A stretch of DNA of 36,881 nucleotides from Candidatus Undinarchaeota archaeon (GCA_964567575.1 CAZMMZ010000004.1:27931-64811), one strand, 5' to 3'. Positions 5,646 to 28,496 are shown, numbered from the stretch's first letter. The notes: generated from the letters alone by a model not told the origin. Numbers and translations are program-made.

Positions 5646-8369
5646 TTAAACAGATTCTATAACAGATTTGATGTAACCGTTTTTAACTTCTGTTTTTGTA
5701 ACAGGTTCTGGACGTGCAAGAGCTACATTAGGATTTGTGTCTGCTTCGCCAAGATGTTTCTGAACACTTTGACTTTTTTGTTCAATTGATTTTGCAAAAC
5801 CATGAAGCTTTTCTTTTGTTGCATTTGCTTCATTGTATGTTTTGTGAAAATCGTTTTTAATACTTTCAAGATTTGAAAGAACATGTTCAGCGTCTTTTGC
5901 GTGCCATCGAGGTTCTTCAACTTTTTCAGTTGGATGAACAACAGCAACATTTGCAGTTTCAAGTCGTGCCAAATTAAGGCGGTTTTCTGTACTCTTCATT
6001 TCTTCACTTCCATTAACTGGGTTGGTATTGTTAGCTTCTATAAAAGTGTTTTTGATTTTGCTTAAAAGTCCTGAAGATGCACCTGGAGGTTGAGTATCAC
6101 TACCACCGTTACCACCATAATTGATTCCAGTATCATCACCATCGCCTTCTAGAACGCCTTCATCTTGTTTTGAGTAATAATAATAACCAACAAGTGCTGC
6201 TAGCAAGACAAGTGAAACAATCATTGCTGCGATCCCACCAGTTGTAGTTAACAAGTAACCAGTAAGTCCAGCACCATCAACACTACCATCTACTGTTGTA
6301 GCAGAATATTCTTCACTAATTTCAAGTGTGATAGTTGTATACTCTTCTGTGTTTCCATTGCCGATATACAAATCAACATTGTGCAATCCTGCAGGAGCGT
6401 TGTTTAGTTTACCAGTAACAGTAACAGTCTTTGTTTCTTCAGGAAGAACTGTAATGCTTTCTGGAGTTAAATCAACCTCAATTCCTTTTGTGTACATTAG
6501 ATAAGTTTGTGATTCATATGATGGATTTTTAACTCGGATAGTCATCTCAAAAGTTCCATTTGGATTAATTTCAAAAGTGTTAGGAGTACTTGAAATTGAA
6601 GCTTTCTCAAGAGATCCTATTTCAAGATCGACTTTTGAACTTTTCTCATATTCACCGTCAATGCTTGCAGTGTAATAGATTTCATAAACACCTGCTTCGT
6701 CGTAGAAAGGACCATCTTCTGGATCCATTGTAAATTGTAAATCTTTTGTTTGACCTGAAGCAATGTAAACTGTTTTTGATTCCATGTAACTGTCATCAGC
6801 ATACAGTTTGATTGTAACATATCTTCCACCACCACTCTTTAGATCAACAAGTCCAACAGGTGCTGTTACAGTTACTGTTGAAACTGCGCCTTCATCAAAA
6901 CCAGATGGCGTAACCTTTGGTCTTGAAAGACTTAGATCATAATTATTTGCAGGAGCTCCGATAACAAGATCAGATTTCTCTGTGTCACTTGAATGACCTT
7001 CTGCAGTTACTCGAATTGCATAAGTGTCTACGCGAGCATCAATTGGTACATCAACATAAAGTGAAACATAAGTATATTTTCCTGCATCAAGTGAAACTGA
7101 ATGATGTTCCCAATCGAACCAGTGATCAATGTTCCAAGGTGCTCTGAATGTAAGATCAAAAGTATCTCTGTGAGTTCCTATATTTTGAACAAGAACATCA
7201 AACTCTCGATAACTTCCTGATCTAACATTAAGAGTTCTTGGCTCAATGTTTATATTAACATCATAATCAAGACCAGAATCAACATCATCAAAGCCATCGT
7301 CATGTCCATTGCCTTGACCAATATCTTCAATTTCTAAATAGACTTTTTCAAGTTCTTCAAGTCTGCCATTTAGATCTTCTAATTTAATTGTAATTGGATA
7401 ATTTCCAGCTGCAGCATCAGAAGGAACATTTACGAAAAGTGAAATGTCTTCTTGCTCGCCAGCTCTTAGATGAATATATTGAATTTCTGGAGATAACCAG
7501 TATTCAAATTCATCATGGGTACTAATATCAAGAACAAATGTTCCTTGTCTGTCTCCAACACTTGCAATTGAAACAATGTAATCGAATAATTGTCCTGGTG
7601 CAAGTTTTAGTTTGTATGGAGATACAACCATATTAACAAGGCCGTCTCCGCTTATTCCAGAAGATTCAACAGTTACTGTATCTTGAACCTGGATTGTTTC
7701 TCCACCTTCATAAACAGATGCGGAAACAGTTGTTTCTCCAGATCCTGCAAATTGAATTCCATTAGAATATGTAAAAGTGAATGCACCATTTGCAGCTGCA
7801 GGAACAGAACCAAGTACACCAACACCAGCAATACTGAAAGTAACTGTAGTTGGTAAACCAGCACCATTCTTTAATACAGTACCAGTGAAAGTTATTGGTT
7901 GAGCTGAATGGAAAAATTCATCAGCGTAAATAATATCAGTTGCATCAAAATCAGTGAATGAAACATTATCATCAACATCAAATTGGATTGTACCAGTGTT
8001 TGATGCATTGTTAACATCAGATTCAATTGTGATATTTGCATTTACATCATAAGTATCACTTACAGTTGGTGACCAAGCATAAGTTAAATCTTGAACCTCA
8101 GAAGCACCAAGTGAAATTGTGTCTGAACCACTTGAAATCACATTTGAATCGCGTGTAATTTCATAACGAACCACAGCATTAACAGCTGCATCAGCCCCTA
8201 TATTATCAACGCGCACAGTAAGTGTAGCAGCGTCATTAACATACATTGGACTTGGTTCAGAAGTTAGACTAACAACTCGAGCATCCACTGCCGCGTGGAC
8301 AGGAACTGCGATCATAGTTAGAAATACTATGATTGTTAACAATAGTTTCTTAAGGTTGACATTTGTCAT
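5646..8369 (-). CDS. Large membrane-anchored surface protein with tandem CARDB/NEW3-type Ig-like domains and a cytoplasmic tail
   Basis: Signal peptide (KKLLLTIIVFLTMIAVPVHA), repeated VxNxG.../GxYxIxVxA Ig-like units, TM GGIAAMIVSLVLLAALVGYYYY, ~170-aa tail. Start placed at MTNVNL (8369). Confidence 0.75.
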   Translation of the reverse strand: MTNVNLKKLLLTIIVFLTMIAVPVHAAVDARVVSLTSEPSPMYVNDAATLTVRVDNIGADAAVNAVVRYEITRDSNVISSGSDTISLGASEVQDLTYAWSPTVSDTYDVNANITIESDVNNASNTGTIQFDVDDNVSFTDFDATDIIYADEFFHSAQPITFTGTVLKNGAGLPTTVTFSIAGVGVLGSVPAAANGAFTFTYSNGIQFAGSGETTVSASVYEGGETIQVQDTVTVESSGISGDGLVNMVVSPYKLKLAPGQLFDYIVSIASVGDRQGTFVLDISTHDEFEYWLSPEIQYIHLRAGEQEDISLFVNVPSDAAAGNYPITIKLEDLNGRLEELEKVYLEIEDIGQGNGHDDGFDDVDSGLDYDVNINIEPRTLNVRSGSYREFDVLVQNIGTHRDTFDLTFRAPWNIDHWFDWEHHSVSLDAGKYTYVSLYVDVPIDARVDTYAIRVTAEGHSSDTEKSDLVIGAPANNYDLSLSRPKVTPSGFDEGAVSTVTVTAPVGLVDLKSGGGRYVTIKLYADDSYMESKTVYIASGQTKDLQFTMDPEDGPFYDEAGVYEIYYTASIDGEYEKSSKVDLEIGSLEKASISSTPNTFEINPNGTFEMTIRVKNPSYESQTYLMYTKGIEVDLTPESITVLPEETKTVTVTGKLNNAPAGLHNVDLYIGNGNTEEYTTITLEISEEYSATTVDGSVDGAGLTGYLLTTTGGIAAMIVSLVLLAALVGYYYYSKQDEGVLEGDGDDTGINYGGNGGSDTQPPGASSGLLSKIKNTFIEANNTNPVNGSEEMKSTENRLNLARLETANVAVVHPTEKVEEPRWHAKDAEHVLSNLESIKNDFHKTYNEANATKEKLHGFAKSIEQKSQSVQKHLGEADTNPNVALARPEPVTKTEVKNGYIKSVIESV

Positions 8370-9000: not shown

Positions 9001-9570
9001 GTGAGCACAATGACTGAATTAAACTTTAAAACAGCTTTCAAATACCCATTTAATAGGGCAAAGGGAATGCTTAACATTTTCTGGATATTCTTACCAATTA
9101 TTGGTTGGTTTGCATTAGGCGGATATGGTGTTAGAATTGTTCAAGAATTTAGTAAAGGCAAATTCAAGAAATTGCCTACTATGAAATTTAGCAGTGATTT
9201 AAAATTGGGTTTTATGATGTTCGTAAAAGCTATTCCTTTTGTAGTAGTCTATGGAATACTTACAAATATCCTTGGTGCCATAAATCCTTGGATAAGAGGA
9301 TTAGCTGACTTTTTCTTGGGATTATTTGTAGTTCCAATATTAAGCATCCATTTCATAAATAAACAAACAGTGGGTTCTTATTTTGAAGTAGAAATAATAA
9401 GATCTGTTTTTGATAATCTAGGAGATTATGTTACAGCGTTGGTGAAAACGATTTTGTTAGGACTGATATTTGTATTAATGAGTATAATCTTAATAGGAAT
9501 ACCTGCTAATGCTTTTACAAAAAATATCTTCTTAGCAGATTTCTATAAAAGAAAAGTAAAAAAGAAATGA
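9001..9570 (+). CDS. DUF4013-like membrane protein
   Basis: AFKYPF, PIIGWFALGGYGVRIV, LPxxxF..DLKLGFMMFV pattern; start is GTG 9001 or ATG 9010. Confidence 0.72.
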   Translation: MSTMTELNFKTAFKYPFNRAKGMLNIFWIFLPIIGWFALGGYGVRIVQEFSKGKFKKLPTMKFSSDLKLGFMMFVKAIPFVVVYGILTNILGAINPWIRGLADFFLGLFVVPILSIHFINKQTVGSYFEVEIIRSVFDNLGDYVTALVKTILLGLIFVLMSIILIGIPANAFTKNIFLADFYKRKVKKK

Positions 9571-10088
9571 AAAAATCGGAAATCAAAAAAGTATTACTTA
9601 CTCTTGTTTTACCACTAGCATTAACAATTATTGGATTTATTGGAACAGCTGCTGGTGCAATTAATAAAAATAAATTATTTTTTGGAACTGGATTAATTAT
9701 AATGCTTGCAGGAATTATTGTTTTTTTCAAAAACAAAAAAAAGTTAAAAATAAATGCATGGCAAGTATTTGCAATGTCCTGGTTATTTGTTGATGGATGT
9801 TTCCATGCGTTTGCTGTAGCTGATTTTATAGAAGGAGTAGCACCTGACGCAGTTATTGCAAGAGGATTACTTGAACTCGCTGGAGCTTTGCCAATTTATA
9901 TCCACAGGATCATGGGAGCGTTCCTACTTTCAACAACAGTGTATGCCCTTTACTTATTGACTAGAAAAAAGAAATCAAATAAATTTGAAAGAATCTATTT
10001 AATTATTTACACGTGGGTTGAAGCACCAATAACAATTGCAATAATTGCTATAGGGATAATACTAAATCTTTTAGGAATTGGAATTTAA
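9567..10088 (+). CDS. Hypothetical multi-pass membrane protein
   Basis: 173 aa with about 5 hydrophobic segments; ATGA overlap with the upstream gene. Confidence 0.6.
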   Translation: MKKSEIKKVLLTLVLPLALTIIGFIGTAAGAINKNKLFFGTGLIIMLAGIIVFFKNKKKLKINAWQVFAMSWLFVDGCFHAFAVADFIEGVAPDAVIARGLLELAGALPIYIHRIMGAFLLSTTVYALYLLTRKKKSNKFERIYLIIYTWVEAPITIAIIAIGIILNLLGIGI

Positions 10089-10261
10089 ACTAAAACTGAA
10101 TACACAAACAGCACAGCTGAAATTATAAAACAAATAATAGCAAATCTAAAATTTGTACGCAGTCCGCGTTTTTTATTAAGTTTTATTTTAAGTCGGGCTA
10201 ATGTCCTAACTTGCCAATTAATTATTTGTTCTGGAAAAAGAATTATAATTAAGCACAGGTT
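10085..10261 (-). pseudogene. Start-less fragment of a small membrane-protein gene
   Basis: 59-codon open frame (NLCLIIILFPEQIINWQVRTLARLKIK...FAIICFIISAVLFVYSVLV*), closed upstream by TAA at 10262-10264, with no start codon. Confidence 0.3.
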
Positions 10262-10556
10262 TTAAAAAAATTAGGAATAACTGTAGTAATAATAGAAAAT
10301 ATGCACGATGTTCCTTATGTAAAAACAGTTGGTCCTGAAATCAGTTCTATGATGGCAATCATTGGAAAAGAAATAAAAAAATTAGATTTATATTGTGGTA
10401 TTCAAATTTTAGCAGGTGCAAACAAAGAAGCACTTGCAGTAGCAAAATCAGCAGGTTATACTTCGAATCCTAATTGAACATACAGAAATTAAGAATATTA
10501 TACATCAAACTAAACAACCGGAAAAAGTGAATGATTTTTTAAAAAAAGTAAAGTGA
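10253..10556 (+). pseudogene. BtpA/SgcQ-family remnant (5' truncated, internally deleted)
   Basis: IIENMHDVPY...VGPEISSMMAII...CGIQILAGANKEALAVAKSAG is the BtpA/SgcQ signature. No start codon; stops at 10477. A second frame ends EKVNDFLKKVK* at 10556. Confidence 0.75.
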
Positions 10557-10559
10557 TAC

Positions 10560-10599
10560 GCTCAAAACATTTATTAACATCTAAAATACTTATTCTACT
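10560..10599 (+). repeat. Copy A of the tRNA-Trp promoter repeat (BRE-TATA), upstream of the radical SAM gene
   Basis: GCTCAAAACATTTATTAACATCTAAAATACTTATTCTACT; ungapped hand count 34/40 to copy B and 32/40 to copy C. Confidence 0.85.
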
Positions 10600-10630
10600 T
10601 CGATTTAGGATTACAAGAGAAGGATAAACT

Positions 10631-11968
10631 ATGAAAGTATTACTTATCAGCCCTAACATTACCGGCATGAAGGACGGTGTTAATAGAATACAGCCACCGC
10701 TTGGTATATGCTATCTTGCAAGTGTTGCTAGAGAAGCTGGTCATGAAGTTTTTGTTAGAGATACAGCACTTGAAGATTATAGTAACCAAGTAGAGATTGG
10801 TAGAGGGTTAGTAAATATTGGAGAGAGTGATGAAAAAATTAAAGAATTTATTCAAAAAATTAATCCAGATGTAATTGGTGTAACAGCTACTCTTTCTAGT
10901 CTTGAATCCTCTGCATTAAACACAATTAAATTAGCAAAAGAAGTTAATCCAGATATTGTTACTGTTCTTGGTGGCAATCACATAACATTCTCTGAAAAGG
11001 ATTTTGCAGTTGATTACGTTATTAAAGGCGAAGGAGAAGTTGCATTTGTTAAATTGTTAGATAATCTAAAAAATAATATTAAGCCAGATAAAATTATCAC
11101 TGGTCTTCCTTTTGAAAATCTTGATGAGCTCCCATTTCCTGCACGGGATCTTATGAATATAGAAAAATATTTTAAAATTAATTTATTTCATTCAAGCAGA
11201 AGTGGTAGACGTATTTTGAATGTTATGACTAGTCGTGGTTGTCCGCAGGAGTGTTCTTTTTGCACAACTCCAAAAATGTGGGGTAATCGATTCCGTTTCA
11301 GAAGTGCTGAGAATGTAATTGAAGAAATTAAAGGATATGTTGAAAAGTATAATATTGAAGAAGTTCAATTTGAAGATGATACGCTTACACTGAATATCCA
11401 AAACTTATACAAATTATGTGACTTGCTAAAACCAATGAATCTGAAATGGTGCGTTCCAAATGGTATTAGAATTAATTATCACGTTGATCAACATGAAGAG
11501 ATGTTCCGAAGAATGAAAGAATCTGGTTGTTTCCAAGTTACTCTTGCTTGCGAAAGCGGAAATCAACGAGTATTAGATGAAGTTCTTAATAAAAATTTGA
11601 AATTAGAACAAATTAAACCAGCAATTGAAAAAGCAAAGAAAGTTGGTTTGCAAGTTCACACTTTTTGGCTTGTTGGAGCCCCTGGTGAAACAAGGAAAGA
11701 AATGGAAGAAACAATTGAATTTGCTAGTAAGTGTGGTGCAGACAGCTACACTGTAAGCATATACTGCCCATTACCAGGGAGCAAGCTTTTTGATAAAGTC
11801 ATGAAAGAAGGATTATGGTTAGATGGTGGTTTTTCCAATTTAATGATTTATAGAAAGTCTTTCATTCGGGTTGATGGTTTTGAAACTGGTAAAGAATTTG
11901 AAGATTGGGTTACTGAGCAAAACGCATTTCTTAATAAAGGCAGTAAGTTTTTTGTGAAACAAACTTGA
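10631..11968 (+). CDS. Cobalamin-binding (class B-type) radical SAM protein
   Basis: N-terminal B12-binding domain (PPLGICYLAS, PDVIGVT, VLGGNH, GEGE); TSRGCPQECSFC CxxxCxxC motif; EDDTLT; ESGNQRVL. Confidence 0.92.
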   Translation: MKVLLISPNITGMKDGVNRIQPPLGICYLASVAREAGHEVFVRDTALEDYSNQVEIGRGLVNIGESDEKIKEFIQKINPDVIGVTATLSSLESSALNTIKLAKEVNPDIVTVLGGNHITFSEKDFAVDYVIKGEGEVAFVKLLDNLKNNIKPDKIITGLPFENLDELPFPARDLMNIEKYFKINLFHSSRSGRRILNVMTSRGCPQECSFCTTPKMWGNRFRFRSAENVIEEIKGYVEKYNIEEVQFEDDTLTLNIQNLYKLCDLLKPMNLKWCVPNGIRINYHVDQHEEMFRRMKESGCFQVTLACESGNQRVLDEVLNKNLKLEQIKPAIEKAKKVGLQVHTFWLVGAPGETRKEMEETIEFASKCGADSYTVSIYCPLPGSKLFDKVMKEGLWLDGGFSNLMIYRKSFIRVDGFETGKEFEDWVTEQNAFLNKGSKFFVKQT

Positions 11969-11980
11969 TGTTAAGAACTC

Positions 11981-12060
11981 ACTCAAAACCTTTATTAACA
12001 TCAAAAATACTTAATTTAATTCTAAAGAGGGGATATGGCGTAACGTGACTCTTGGCTCCG
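11981..12060 (+). repeat. Copy B: tRNA-Trp promoter plus degenerate 5' part of tRNA-Trp
   Basis: 11981-12047 aligns ungapped to 13591-13657 (offset 1610 nt, 58/67 identical by hand); followed by TGGCTCC, matching the anticodon arm. Confidence 0.9.
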
Positions 12061-12081
12061 GTACACACCACGAATTATGCC
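12029..12081 (+). pseudogene. tRNA-Trp 5' remnant / candidate tRNA-derived hairpin RNA
   Basis: GGGGATATGGCGTAACGTG versus tRNA GGGGCTATGGCGTAACCTG; no T-arm or 3' acceptor strand; GGCGTAACGTG can pair with CACG-AA-TTATGCC. Confidence 0.7.
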
Positions 12082-12110
12082 AAAAATGACAAGAAAATAA
12101 TTTAGTTTTA

Positions 12111-12125
12111 CAAAACCTTTATTAA
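12111..12125 (+). repeat. Copy D: BRE-TATA core of the same promoter
   Basis: CAAAACCTTTATTAA, a 15-nt exact match to copies B and C, 14 nt from the stop of the convergent S-layer-like gene. Confidence 0.6.
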
Positions 12126-12139
12126 TCCCAAACTGATTT

Positions 12140-13540
12140 TCAATTCACATTTAAAGAAGCAGAATCATCAATAACTTCCAAGATTTCAAGTTCGTCACCC
12201 CAGGAGTTTACGATAATCACCTTGCCAGATAAAAGCTCGTCATTTTTTTCCTGCGCGAGAAGATCGGTTGCGGCTTTTGTGCCCCATCTGGTTAATCCTG
12301 CAGCAATTATCACGTTTTTGTCAGGGTTGTATGGATTTTTAGTTATAACTAGCATACCAATACCAGGATTATCATATCCATTATATTCCTTAGAACCGCC
12401 AGTTATGTACCAGAGATTGTTTTTTTGCTCGAAGCGCACTGGAAGCAATGGGTTAATTTCTCTGACAAGAGAATTCGTGACCGGACCCCCGACAAGTATG
12501 AGATTATCTGCCTTTTGGTCAGATATGATTTCAGTATCAATAATGTTCACACTTTTTGATTTACCGGATATGACCCCAAAACGCTGAGCAATATCAGCAA
12601 CCCCCTGAACGTCCGGAGCAGCTGCAGATTCTCCCATTATTATCCAAGACTTGTGCTCTCCTGGAGAAACAAAAAAAGAAGGGTAACTGCTCAGGGTTCC
12701 AGGAATAGCAGGACGTGATGGTTTAGCTGGTTCGGCTTCTGCTTCCTCAACGAGAGCAGCTGAAGGTTCGCTTATTGTAGTAGTTTCTTCTGAAACTTCA
12801 GCAGAAAGCGCCTGCTTCAAACAGACGCCGTTATTGCAGCCATTTTCACATAGGTAGATATCCTTGCCGTAATTAGTTTCAGTTGGACAGGAATATTCCA
12901 CTAAATAATCAGATGCCTCTGCAGTGCTTCCCCAGCTATTAACAGGAGTTTTTTCAATGCAAATATCAGTATTTGATCCGCCAGCCCCGTATGTAACAGT
13001 CCCTTTTGTATATTTATCTTTGCCATTATCCGAATCAACACAACCAACATCCTTAATCAAATGAGGAACTGTCTTGATTGGTTTAGGCGCTTGCGGAGAA
13101 TCCGTTTTTTCGCTTTTTTCAGAAATTTGCTCTTGCTTTTTCACAACCAAGCTTTCTGTTTTAATAGAAGTCTGTTCTGTTGATGCAACAGCTTCAACTT
13201 CGCCACACAGATCTTCCGGCAAATCCAGAACAAGTTCTATTGATCCAAGGTTGCTGTCAGAATCTAGTTCTGCAGTTACCATAATAACAGGAATGTTGGA
13301 AATTATTGCATTGTCACCTGAATTAACGTATTTAAGTTCAGTTATTTTGCGCGTCCGAATACCGATCTTGGCTTTGTATCCAGAATCGCTGTTCCCATAC
13401 AAACCTACAAGAGAAACAGAAACACAATCAACGATAGCTGTTGAATCTCCAGCAGTATTAAGTTTGATAGTATGTGATTCAGCAAGAACAGGTTGAAAGA
13501 ACAACAATAATCCTATTAGGAGACATATTATTTTTTTCAT
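12140..13540 (-). CDS. Secreted S-layer-like protein with a Cys-rich module and a Methanococcus-type S-layer C-terminal domain
   Basis: Signal peptide; CVDSDNGKDKYTKG...C...EYSC...CENGCNNGVC module; IMGESAAAPDVQGVADIA, NLILVGGPVTNSLV, IIAAGLTRWGTKAA. Confidence 0.75.
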   Translation of the reverse strand: MKKIICLLIGLLLFFQPVLAESHTIKLNTAGDSTAIVDCVSVSLVGLYGNSDSGYKAKIGIRTRKITELKYVNSGDNAIISNIPVIMVTAELDSDSNLGSIELVLDLPEDLCGEVEAVASTEQTSIKTESLVVKKQEQISEKSEKTDSPQAPKPIKTVPHLIKDVGCVDSDNGKDKYTKGTVTYGAGGSNTDICIEKTPVNSWGSTAEASDYLVEYSCPTETNYGKDIYLCENGCNNGVCLKQALSAEVSEETTTISEPSAALVEEAEAEPAKPSRPAIPGTLSSYPSFFVSPGEHKSWIIMGESAAAPDVQGVADIAQRFGVISGKSKSVNIIDTEIISDQKADNLILVGGPVTNSLVREINPLLPVRFEQKNNLWYITGGSKEYNGYDNPGIGMLVITKNPYNPDKNVIIAAGLTRWGTKAATDLLAQEKNDELLSGKVIIVNSWGDELEILEVIDDSASLNVN

Positions 13541-13590
13541 AAAATATATTCAGTAAAGAAGTTTATAAAGTTTGGCGATAACAAATCACA

Positions 13591-13638
13591 ACTCAAAACC
13601 TTTATTAACATCCAATTCACTTATTCTAACTCTAAAGA
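13591..13638 (+). promoter_or_regulatory. Copy C: native promoter of tRNA-Trp
   Basis: CAAAACC (BRE) + TTTATTAA (TATA, 13601-13608), about 30 nt upstream of the mature tRNA 5' end. Confidence 0.8.
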
Positions 13639-13769
13639 GGGGCTATGGCGTAACCTGGGAGCGTAAGTGGCTCCAGACATCTGGAGCGTTGATCCTTCGG
13701 GAAATGATATATTTCAAGGCTCGCAGTGGCAGAAACCACTAGGCCAGGGTTCAAATCCCTGTGGCCCCA
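13639..13769 (+). tRNA. trnW: tRNA-Trp (anticodon CCA) with a 58-nt intron at 37/38; CCA tail not encoded
   Basis: Acceptor GGGGCTA/TGGCCCC + A73; D-arm GCGT/GCGT with wobbles; anticodon stem AGTGG/CCACT; loop CT-CCA-G|A; T-loop TTCAAAT; intron 13677-13734. Confidence 0.95.
13677..13734 (+). ncRNA. tRNA-Trp intron with a box C'/D' K-turn and a guide complementary to the anticodon loop
   Basis: CTGGAGC (13681-13687) is complementary to G31-G37; TTGA (D'-like, 13689-13692); TCC-TTCG-GGA stem; AATGATA (C'-like); the D+5 position pairs with C34. Confidence 0.75.
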
Positions 13770-13817: not shown

Positions 13818-16490
13818 ATGACTGATTACGACCACAAAAAAATAGAGCAGAAATGGCAAACTGCTTGGGCAGAAAAGAAAATATTCAAAGTTAAAGAGGA
13901 TTCTAAGAAAAAAAAGTATTATGTTTTAGAAATGTTTCCTTATCCTTCAGGCAAACTTCATATGGGTCATGTTCGTAACTATTCAATAGGTGACGCATGC
14001 TCTCGATTTAAACGCATGAATGGCTTTAATGTTCTTTATCCAATGGGATATGATGCTCTTGGACTTCCTGCAGAAAACGCTGCAATCAAAAACAAAACCA
14101 ATCCAGACAAATGGACAAAGAAAAGTATGGCGCAAATGACAGAACAACTTAAACTCCTTGGACTTTCATATGATTGGGACAGAACAGTTGCAACTTGTGA
14201 TCCTGATTATTACAAATGGAACCAATACATTTTCACAAAGTTTTTTGAAAAAGGACTTGCATACAAAAAACCTTCACCAGTTAATTGGTGCCCAGGTTGT
14301 GGAACTGTACTTGCAAATGAACAAGTTGAAAATGGAAAATGTTGGAGATGCAAAGCTGAAGTTGAAGTTAAAAATCTTGAGCAATGGTCATTTAGAATTA
14401 CAGATTATGCTGAAGAACTTTTGAAAGACATTGATGATAAACTTGATGAATGGCCAGAGCGCGTCAAAACAATGCAAAAAAATTGGATTGGAAAAAGTAA
14501 AGGTGTTGTTCTTAAATTCCCAATTATTGATTCTGATAAAACTCTTGAAATGTTCACAACTCGTGTTGATACTTTATGGGGAGTAACTTTTGTTGTTCTT
14601 GCACCAGAGAATCCACTTGTTGAAGAACTTGTTGCAGGAACAAAAATTGAAAAAGATGTAAAGGAATTCATTAAGAAAGTTGTTATTCAAGATAAATTTG
14701 AAAGAACAGCAGATGATAAAGAAAAAGAAGGAATGTTTATCGGCCGCTACGTAACGAATCCGGCAACGAATGAAAAGATTCCGATTTACATTGGCAATTT
14801 TGTTTTAATGGAATATGGAACAGGAGCAATCATTGCTGTACCAACTCACGATCAACGAGACTTTGAATTTGCAAAAAAATATAATATTCCAATGCGCGTT
14901 GTCATAACTCCAGAAGGTCATGAATTAAATCCTGATAAAATGGTTCGCGCTTACATGGACGAAGGTGTGATGTGCAACTCTGGAGAATTCAATGGATGGA
15001 ACAACAAAGAAGCAATTGATGCAATTGGAGAATATTGTGAAAAGCACAAATGGGGAGAACGCACAACACAATACAAACTCCGTGATTGGTTAATTTCAAG
15101 ACAACGATATTGGGGAACCCCAATCCCAATTATTTATTGTGAAAAATGTGGAACAAATGCAGTTCCAGAAAAAGACTTACCAATTAAACTTCCAACAGAT
15201 GTGAAATTTGAAGGAAAAGGAAATCCAATCAAAACTTCAAAAACTTTTGTTAATTGTAAATGTCCAAAATGTGGTGGCAAAGCAAAGCGAGAAACTGACA
15301 CAATGGACACTTTTGTAGATAGTTCTTGGTATTGGTTCAGATACTGTGATCCAAAGAATAGCAAATTGCCTTATGACAAAAAAACAATAAAATACTGGAA
15401 TCCAGTGGACCAATACATCGGCGGTATTGAACATGCAATTCTTCACTTACTTTATTCTCGATTCTACACAAAAGCTACTCGCGATCTTGGATTACATAAT
15501 ATTGACGAGCCATTCAAACGCTTGCTTTGCCAAGGAATGGTAATTAAAGACGGAGCAAAGATGTCAAAGAGTTTAGGAAATGTTGTTGATCCAAATGAAA
15601 TTATTAAAAAATACGGTGCAGATACTGCACGAATGTTCATGCTCTTTACTGCATTACCTGAAAAGGAATTAGATTGGAGTGAACAAGGAGTAGACGCAGT
15701 CTATCGGTTCTTGCGCAGAATTTATACATTATTTGATGAAGCAAAATTCGCAGATCGCGCAATCAAAGGAACACTTCGAAGCAAAGACAAATACATTCTT
15801 GCAAAAACTCACAGCATATTAAAGAAAGTTACAGGACACATGGAAAACTTCCAGCTTAATATTGCAATTTCAGCAATGATGGAACTCGTTACAGAATTAA
15901 ATAAATATTCTTCAGATTCAAAACCAGAAGTAATGTTTGAAGGCCTCAAAACCCTTGCATTAATGTTAAATCCGTTTGCTCCACATCTTGCTGAAGAATT
16001 CTGGCATATACTCAAACAGAAACCATTCATATCTTTACAGAAATGGCCAGAACCAAATAAGAAATATCTTGATGAAAGTTTTGAGCAAGGCGAAACATTA
16101 GTTCGAAACACACTCTCTGATATTCGACAAGTTATTGACATTGTTGGAAAGCAACCAAAAAAGATTACACTCTTTATTGCACCGGAATGGAAGCGCGAAA
16201 TTTATTCTGGAGTAAAAGCAGGAAAACAAATTAAAGATTTCATGCAAGATGAGAAATTCAGGAAATATGGAAAAGATGTTGCAAAAATGGTTCCTGCTTT
16301 AATGAAAAAGAAAGAACAATTAAAAGAAAAAGTAATGAGCCAGAAAGAGGAATTAAAAGTTTTTGAAGAAAGTAAAACGCAAATGGAAGAAGCACTTGAG
16401 TGCAAATTAGAAGTTGTTAAAGCTCAAGATTCCAAAGAAGATAAAGCAAAAGTAGCTGGTCCAGAGAAACCAGGTGTTTTAGTGGATTAA
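13818..16490 (+). CDS. leuS: Leucyl-tRNA synthetase (bacterial-type core, archaeal-type C-terminal domain)
   Basis: [75 protein letters not shown]; ends [15 protein letters not shown]. Confidence 0.97.
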
Positions 16491-28426: not shown

Positions 28427-28446
28427 AAAAGAACCAATTTCAAATA

Positions 28447-28496
28447 AGGGCTTCGCGAAGCGAATGCCCTCGGCCATTGTCCGCGGCCAGGCGGAC
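28447..28496. other. GC-rich double-hairpin element between convergent genes (REP-like or bidirectional terminator)
   Basis: AGGGCTTCGC-GAA-GCGAA-T-GCCCT (28447-28470) and GTCCGC-GGCCAG-GCGGAC (28479-28496) in otherwise AT-rich DNA. Confidence 0.6.

Follow-up and report, generated by a model that had tools for sequence, protein, structure and literature searches.

A 36,881-nucleotide (nt) stretch of the genome of a Candidatus Undinarchaeota archaeon, a tiny organism of marine type and a member of the DPANN archaea (GCA_964567575.1, CAZMMZ010000004.1:27931-64811; hereafter, the window), carries several copies of the promoter of its tryptophan tRNA gene (tRNA-Trp) in a row upstream of that gene, with protein-coding genes lying among them. 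We think it probable that this array arose as small cassettes lacking an integrase were inserted, one after another, into the promoter and 5' part of tRNA-Trp, and the sequence comparisons point to a small mobile-cassette family at this tRNA gene. An earlier reading of the window from its sequence alone (hereafter, the sequence-only reading) had proposed a gene-capture hotspot here, and this much is supported both by an empty site in relatives and by recurrent stacks in two other lineages. The window lies in G000, a 745-kb assembly that is 82% complete. We compare it below with G001 and G002, which are metagenome-assembled genomes (MAGs) of the same genus, with G004, which belongs to another family of the same order (completeness of all four genomes, 78-82%), and with L120 and L121, contigs from the Joint Genome Institute (JGI) whose leucyl-tRNA synthetase (LeuRS) is 82% identical to that of the window.

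The copies stand in direct orientation at 10560 (A), 11981 (B), 12111 (D) and 13591 (C, the native promoter), as the sequence-only reading had them. In a search of the whole genome, B matches C with 87% identity across 67 nt (E = 3e-17) and A matches C with 86% identity across 37 nt (E = 2e-6). A, B and C are paralogues of the tRNA-Trp promoter, with 22-52 nt in common outside a 15-nt core, CAAAACCTTTATTAA, that comprises the transcription factor B recognition element (BRE) and TATA box; four matches to this core are found in the window at two mismatches or fewer, where 0.4 are expected. The features of the locus, in window coordinates, are as follows.

10084-10262, minus strand: degraded remnant of a small membrane-protein gene, 82-90% identical to G001 (L011 8437-8641); ancestral left flank of the tRNA-Trp promoter
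10301-10477, plus strand: internal fragment (58 aa) of a foreign BtpA-family pseudogene, matching positions 52-103 of the 254 in the Pfam BtpA profile, below the cut-off
10560-10612, plus strand: copy A, a tRNA-Trp-type BRE/TATA (10563-10577) with spacer, from homology to C
10631-11968, plus strand: B12-binding radical SAM gene, 445 aa (Pfam B12-binding and Radical_SAM)
11968-11978, plus strand: 11-nt stretch ATGTTAAGAAC to the left of B, the same as that left of the native tRNA-Trp promoter in G001
11981-12047, plus strand: copy B, promoter plus tRNA-Trp nt 1 to about 19, from homology to C
12048-12090, plus strand: arm, a conserved non-tRNA sequence of about 25 nt after B (core 12059-12085, GTACACACCACGAATTATGCC), from similarity to the G004 and L120 arms
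12111-12132, plus strand: copy D, an exact 15-nt BRE/TATA core with weak flank similarity, facing the 3' end of the S-layer-like gene
12140-13540, minus strand: gene for a secreted S_layer_C-domain protein, 466 aa (Pfam PF05124, E = 1e-14), with its own promoter at 13541-13590
13591-13638, plus strand: copy C, the native promoter, now in use for the functional tRNA-Trp gene; DNA homologous to G001 and G002 starts inside it
13639-13769, plus strand: tRNA-Trp(CCA) gene with an intron (Rfam RF00005, 46.2 bits)
13818-16490, plus strand: LeuRS (Pfam), the conserved right-hand neighbour, syntenic and 87% (G001) and 81% (G002) identical

The tRNA gene was identified with Rfam, since ARAGORN, which reports zero tRNA genes in the window, misses it because of the intron. 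An intron is present in tRNA-Trp of G000, G001, G002, G004 and G009 and is missing in one Undinarchaeota family (L083, L084; G012, G006).

The repeats might have reflected a generic strong-promoter consensus that precedes many unrelated genes, an outcome that the sequence-only reading had set against its own proposal in advance. The counts do not bear this out. The exact 15-mer occurs four times in the genome, namely at B, D and C and in the tRNA-Phe promoter, and with one mismatch or fewer there are eight genome sites, half of which fall inside 3 kb, on one strand, at the tRNA-Trp locus. No genome site outside that locus matches the tRNA-Trp promoter past 15-19 nt. The upstream regions of the 36 other tRNA genes are heterogeneous, with the core common only to tRNA-Phe, and the TATA words enriched in the genome are TTTATAAA and TTTATATA, not TTTATTAA. 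With only these four occurrences of the 15-mer, of which three are at this locus, and with different promoters at other tRNA genes, the core is not a generic consensus. Additionally, partial promoter/5' tRNA duplicates of other tRNAs were sought across G000, and none was found besides those of tRNA-Trp. Among 17 Undinarchaeota genomes the core has 0-6 matches each at one mismatch or fewer, and the reversed control has 0-5; in G001 and G002, perfect copies of the 15-mer stand before unrelated protein genes and have flanks that are unrelated as well.

The copies differ in extent. The duplicated segment measures 67 nt in B, 45 nt in A, and is limited to the core in D and in L120. The spacer of A, which is without the tRNA part, is identical at 22 of 30 positions to B and at 20 of 30 to C. 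D is exact over the 15-nt core only, its spacer agreeing with the other copies at only 17-19 of 32 positions; it is the weakest copy, because a core alone can arise independently. When D and C were considered as a 15-nt target-site duplication, the flanks of D seemed, by eye, to resemble the native promoters of G002 and G004 past the core.

The site is empty in relatives. G001 has, in order, a DUF4013 gene, a small minus-strand gene, tRNA-Trp and LeuRS; G002 has the DUF4013 gene, a short spacer, tRNA-Trp, an insert of about 1 kb with a tetratricopeptide repeat (TPR) gene, and LeuRS. Both have a single tRNA-Trp promoter/5' copy and are without a counterpart of window positions ~10263-13590, and their DNA homology to the window resumes at 13595-13597, a few bases into copy C. 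To the left, the remnant at 10084-10262 corresponds to the small gene that is intact in G001, where it abuts the tRNA-Trp promoter. Since same-genus MAGs have the empty site, the stretch from ~10263 to 13590 is lineage-specific. Moreover, two independent assemblies, GCA_002998485.1 and JGI 3300035100, show the same arrangement, so the array is not a binning artefact. A 173-aa membrane-protein open reading frame (ORF; window 9567-10088), which overlaps the stop of the DUF4013 gene and is missing from this position in G001 and G002, may represent another insertion particular to this lineage, on the left side of the array.

The flank of B bears on the order of events. The match of ATGTTAAGAAC to the native left flank has p = 0.0007 against random genome windows, and the B spacer is nearest the native promoter of G002 (25/30, versus 20/30 for C). 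These comparisons fit a history in which B would be the displaced original copy and C would have arrived with the S-layer cassette. Alternatively, the duplicated segment could have reached further left, and the difference between the B and C spacers is small.

The sequence-only reading had also placed the tRNA 5' end, up to the anticodon, within B. The homology is firm to about nt 19 and not beyond it: a later 7-mer in B, TGGCTCC, is equalled or exceeded by 325 of 1000 shuffles. What follows nt 19 is the arm. We rejected the idea that it is the decayed rest of tRNA-Trp, as its similarity to the remaining tRNA-Trp is insignificant. The B arm scores 28-29 in local alignment with the arms of two G004 modules, P1 and P3, against a null of 11.5 ± 2.2 (0/4000 random windows), and the arm of L120 scores 38 against that of P1 (0/3000 random) and 25 against that of B (2/3000); for the scores of 28-38 taken together, the null is about 12 ± 2.3. 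When the G004 arms were used as queries in genome-wide blastn and nhmmer searches of G000, the B arm was not ranked; its significance rests on its position directly after the tRNA-5' copy. Among 401 archaeal genomes, the exact arm pattern is found in G000 and G004 only. The tRNA-derived part carries at nt 11 the allele of its host (C in G000, T in G004), and the arm is common to both hosts, as would be expected if a mobile unit with a conserved end had become joined to a target belonging to the host.

Like architecture was then found elsewhere in DPANN, as the sequence-only reading had suggested looking for: stacks with the common arm recur at tRNA-Trp in two other Undinarchaeota lineages. G004 has five extra tRNA-Trp 5' starts on one strand, up to 8.4 kb upstream of tRNA-Trp, arranged as modules P0-P3 and the native copy. 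Each consists of a host-type promoter and tRNA nt 1-16, with the arm in P1-P3, and the spacing from promoter to tRNA-like start ranges from 43 to 123 nt. The cargo comprises Obg, RsgA and CorA; an Ig-like secreted protein; an ArsR/ArsF-like/DsbD/ArsP operon; and a 164-aa ORF. The ORFs flanking this array encode a toxin-antitoxin pair and an SbcC-like coiled-coil protein; the latter, a 421-aa ORF, was considered as a new recombinase and rejected on account of that resemblance. In L120 and L121, the promoter core ends just after TTTATTA and the arm follows directly, the tRNA part being missing; then come a 128-aa ORF and the native promoter with tRNA-Trp. Cargo differs between the three array-bearing lineages. 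Scans of metagenomes and genome collections with the tRNA-Trp 5' sequence returned only G001-, G002- and G004-type contigs, the modules were not found in G001 or G002, and sampling of LeuRS homologs revealed two lineages without tRNA-Trp at the LeuRS site.

The cargo of the window is foreign or accessory, judging from its homologs and composition. The best same-genus match to the radical SAM protein is a paralog at 38-39% identity, and its nearest homologs (67-71% identical) are on unbinned metagenome contigs and in a bacterium of the candidate phyla radiation (CPR; Falkowbacteria). Two of three metagenome homologs adjoin genes for phosphoenolpyruvate mutase, phosphonopyruvate decarboxylase or iron-containing alcohol dehydrogenase. 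These homologs and their neighbours suggest that the gene encodes a phosphonate-related B12-radical SAM methyltransferase, which would have been acquired by transfer and stranded without its pathway. The TATA box of A lies 54 nt 5' of its ATG, the final ~15 nt before the ATG resemble the 5' untranslated region of a homolog, and A is likely the promoter of this gene. The contexts of the homologs contain no related promoter. The BtpA-like fragment has zero homologs in 20 relatives, and a search of 5.8 billion proteins found no full-length homolog of the S_layer_C protein besides itself. The gene for the latter has a GC content of 42-45%, and its flanks about 33%.

The arrangement of these genes was in part as first described. 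The radical SAM stop (11966-11968) does fall 12 nt before B, and D and C do enclose one inverted S-layer-like gene with its own promoter and TATA box. That A and B enclose exactly one gene, radical SAM, stands as a description and not as a cassette boundary, because A sits within a block made up of the BtpA-like fragment, A and radical SAM, and not at its edge.

We picture the array as having formed in the following way. Each insertion would have left a promoter duplicate upstream, accompanied in the case of B by the first ~19 nt of the tRNA, and the full promoter and tRNA would have been retained at the right-hand end. With a complete promoter-plus-tRNA remaining there, tRNA-Trp stays expressed. 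The S-layer-like gene cassette would belong to a family marked by the arm, which sits directly after the displaced promoter/5' copy and, in the two other lineages, appears to mark cassettes with other cargo at tRNA-Trp. Presumably an enzyme acting in trans inserted the cassettes by recombination within or beside the promoter/5' segment; the incoming radical SAM gene would have taken over copy A as its promoter, and the copies in G000 may now be fixed relics.

Several observations weigh against serial cassette insertion. A is not at the left edge of the inserted block, the BtpA-like fragment lying between it and the ancestral flank that ends at ~10262, and it is without both the tRNA part and the arm. 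In the modules of G004, a linker of 45-80 nt is followed by a second tRNA-5' copy, and a single clean crossover per event does not explain all of them. The window has no integrase, as the sequence-only reading had noted, and no tyrosine integrase was found in the whole assembled genome: PF00589 had no match in G000, G001, G002 or G004, although the same search matched 14 of 14 reference genomes, and a phylum-wide search found none in the array-bearing genomes. Serine recombinase (PF00239) and Y1 transposase (PF01797) were also not found in G000, where the TnpB domain (PF07282) has two sub-threshold matches only. The arm was not found in viral contigs, and no free or viral copy of a module was seen; searches of viral contigs with the tRNA 5' segment gave unrelated phage or chance matches only. 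No within-species polymorphism was seen in 11 G002-type contigs and two other assemblies of the G000 organism. Fixed gene content without turnover had been named beforehand as telling against the proposal, and the site does not answer to that description, since its gene content differs between lineages; within species, turnover is unseen. Finally, the feature is seen in three lineages only.

The failure to find a recombinase in any array-bearing genome speaks for an explanation that requires no dedicated machinery, which we consider unlikely but worth serious attention: host Campbell-type recombination with a circular fragment carrying a promoter/5' copy, or long target duplication by break repair at a heavily transcribed promoter. 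The duplicated lengths differ from event to event, the repeats of 37-67 nt are above the 30-bp criterion for such insertions and single-copy at the empty site (PMC2853133), and the block with the BtpA-like fragment, A and radical SAM has no clean repeat at its left edge, all of which is in keeping with it. Random break repair, however, would not place the same arm beside the duplicated segment with unrelated cargo in three lineages, or reuse one target, and the variant that relies on homologous recombination would still require a common donor backbone. Slightly less likely, in our estimation, is a capture system of an undescribed kind, in which an unrecognised recombinase, acting in trans, would insert small circular cassettes, each with a short conserved recombination arm, into the promoter/D-loop region of tRNA-Trp and every insertion would rebuild the promoter and the tRNA 5' end. 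Were it true, it would be a 5'-side, promoter-restoring archaeal counterpart of the integron or of tRNA-island integration.

The sequence-only reading had also proposed an integron-like system that gives incoming genes a strong promoter, and neither element fares well. An active platform, with the tRNA-Trp promoter as a dedicated site for capturing and expressing single-gene cassettes, could account for recurrent modules that bound cassettes in three lineages, for adaptive-looking cargo such as the arsenic-related operon and surface proteins, and for the apparent use of A by the radical SAM gene. Yet no integrase is found beside any array or elsewhere in the array-bearing genomes, the boundary modules have no conserved fold and nothing resembling attC, the 11 contigs of one species show no turnover, and five of the seven cassettes in the three lineages face opposite to the promoter copies. 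Some cargo, including the S-layer-like gene and that of L120, has its own TATA box. Only radical SAM plausibly reads from a copy, so promoter donation is not supported as the purpose of the arrangement, and we regard an active platform as very unlikely. There is a similarly slim chance that the modules are selected small-RNA genes derived from tRNA-Trp, with the intervening genes incidental. BRE/TATA is intact in all modules, the arm is conserved between families, and a T-run lies 3' of the arm in B, as such genes would have it; but the fold of B is no better than that of shuffled sequence (z = -0.1), the four modules yield no consensus structure or covariation, and an Rfam search of modules and arm at E ≤ 1 gave no match. 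The variable promoter spacing in G004, the missing tRNA part in L120 and the lack of modules in G001 and G002 also speak against it. As for chance or convergence, by which independent promoters would match a strong local BRE/TATA consensus, the occurrences of the exact 15-mer before unrelated protein genes in G001 and G002 show how D alone could be explained. For A, B and C it is refuted by the sequence they share past the core, which in B includes tRNA sequence, and the clustering of half the genome matches within 3 kb on one strand argues the same way; as an account of the array, its probability is negligible.

Other elements lie around the tRNA genes of these archaea. A GC-rich element of ~70 nt, containing two hairpins, GGGCTTCGCGAAGCGAATGCCC and GTCCGCGGCCAGGCGGAC, is dispersed in at least 8 copies, of which several lie just downstream of tRNA genes (window 28442-28496; elsewhere in G000, C4:1637-1698, C4:4152-4205, C2:~84640-84700, C5 and C7), and a relative of it sits in the G002 insertion at the tRNA-Trp 3' end. 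A second family consists of GC-rich elements of ~95-135 nt that resemble miniature inverted-repeat transposable elements (L012 7929-8022 in G002; L013 3127-3195 and 8068-8205 in G004; L044 ~6065-6150 in the tRNA-Phe 3' flank of G002). In two genera it is inserted exactly after the TTTATTA of a tRNA-Trp-type promoter, with duplication of the TATA region (11 nt in G002); it also occurs within the tRNA-Trp intron of G004 and was not found in G000. The tRNA-Phe gene of G000 (C4:13947-14460; L042 5890-6470) has a tRNA-Trp-type promoter, identical over 19 nt and with the same spacing, which differs from the tRNA-Phe promoter of G001 and G002, as well as an extra small upstream ORF and compensatory stem changes; these features suggest allelic replacement at this locus. 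In G002 tRNA-Phe is inverted, and in G001 its 3' end is duplicated with an inserted ORF. Downstream of tRNA-Trp, L120 has four tandem units of ~110-130 nt (1258-1690), all of which terminate in a duplicate of the tRNA 3' end, GTGGCCCCAC, and the ~1-kb TPR-gene insertion of G002, with a duplicated 3' end, occupies the same place. Because these units and this insert lie at the 3' side, both sides of tRNA-Trp are insertion hot spots.

DPANN archaea have tiny genomes with few recognisable mobile-element genes, and yet they take up foreign genes. The tRNA-Trp locus would provide a concrete route for such uptake, with repeated insertion on the 5' side, duplication of the promoter, and a short end sequence that links cassettes between families. 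Should the arm prove to be a genuine recombination site, it could be used to search for the missing enzyme and to inventory the mobile cargo of uncultured archaea. The radical SAM gene, which has one of its nearest homologs in a CPR bacterium, appears to have gained an archaeal promoter through the duplication, which bears on how transferred genes come to be expressed.

Serial insertion of cassettes at this locus can be set beside several known systems. In the Islander collection, tDNA islands that leave a 5' fragment are a minority class (159 of 3919), and tandem arrays are listed too; the islands need an integrase, a length >2 kb, and crossovers in the anticodon loop or at the T-loop/acceptor junction (PMC4383910). 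As in these islands, there is here an intact tRNA with a same-strand upstream 5' fragment (B, 1.6 kb upstream), foreign DNA between the two, stacked units, and absence of the inserted DNA from the same site in relatives, as seen in G001 and G002. The units here differ in being without an integrase and in measuring 1.4-3.6 kb, the two in the window, at ~1.4-1.6 kb, falling below the 2-kb floor; their junction is at about tRNA nt 16-19, in the D-loop, or in the TATA box, and the duplication includes an archaeal promoter. Islands specific to dusA swap the 5' end of the target gene for their own sequence (PMC4482086). The likeness to them lies in insertion at the 5' end of the target, which is replaced, promoter-like sequence included, by the element's own copy; dusA-specific islands are, however, bacterial and large, with a dedicated tyrosine integrase and a protein-coding target. 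Insertion with long target duplication, a process that Furuta et al. (2010; PMC2853133) cite from Nobusato et al. (2000), involves inserts <20 kb without mobility genes, direct repeats >30 bp, and a single-copy target in a relative. The B/C repeat of 67 nt and the A/C repeat of 37 nt, with a single copy in G001 and G002, agree with that description, whereas the cases it covers are restriction-modification genes at varied bacterial targets, and here one target is reused and an arm is held in common. With integron cassettes, cis-mobilizable elements (CIMEs) and the tandem accretion of integrase-less elements, the array shares small, mostly single-gene units in a row, a recurring short boundary and the lack of an internal recombinase. 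Unlike them, it shows neither an IntI-like gene nor a palindromic fold of the attC type, the cassettes are not read through from a common promoter, and no partner element with an integrase was found. The locus unites features of the Islander islands, the dusA-specific islands and insertion with long target duplication, and it differs from these three in its 5'/promoter target, its very small units, the position of its junction, and the arm that its cassettes have in common.

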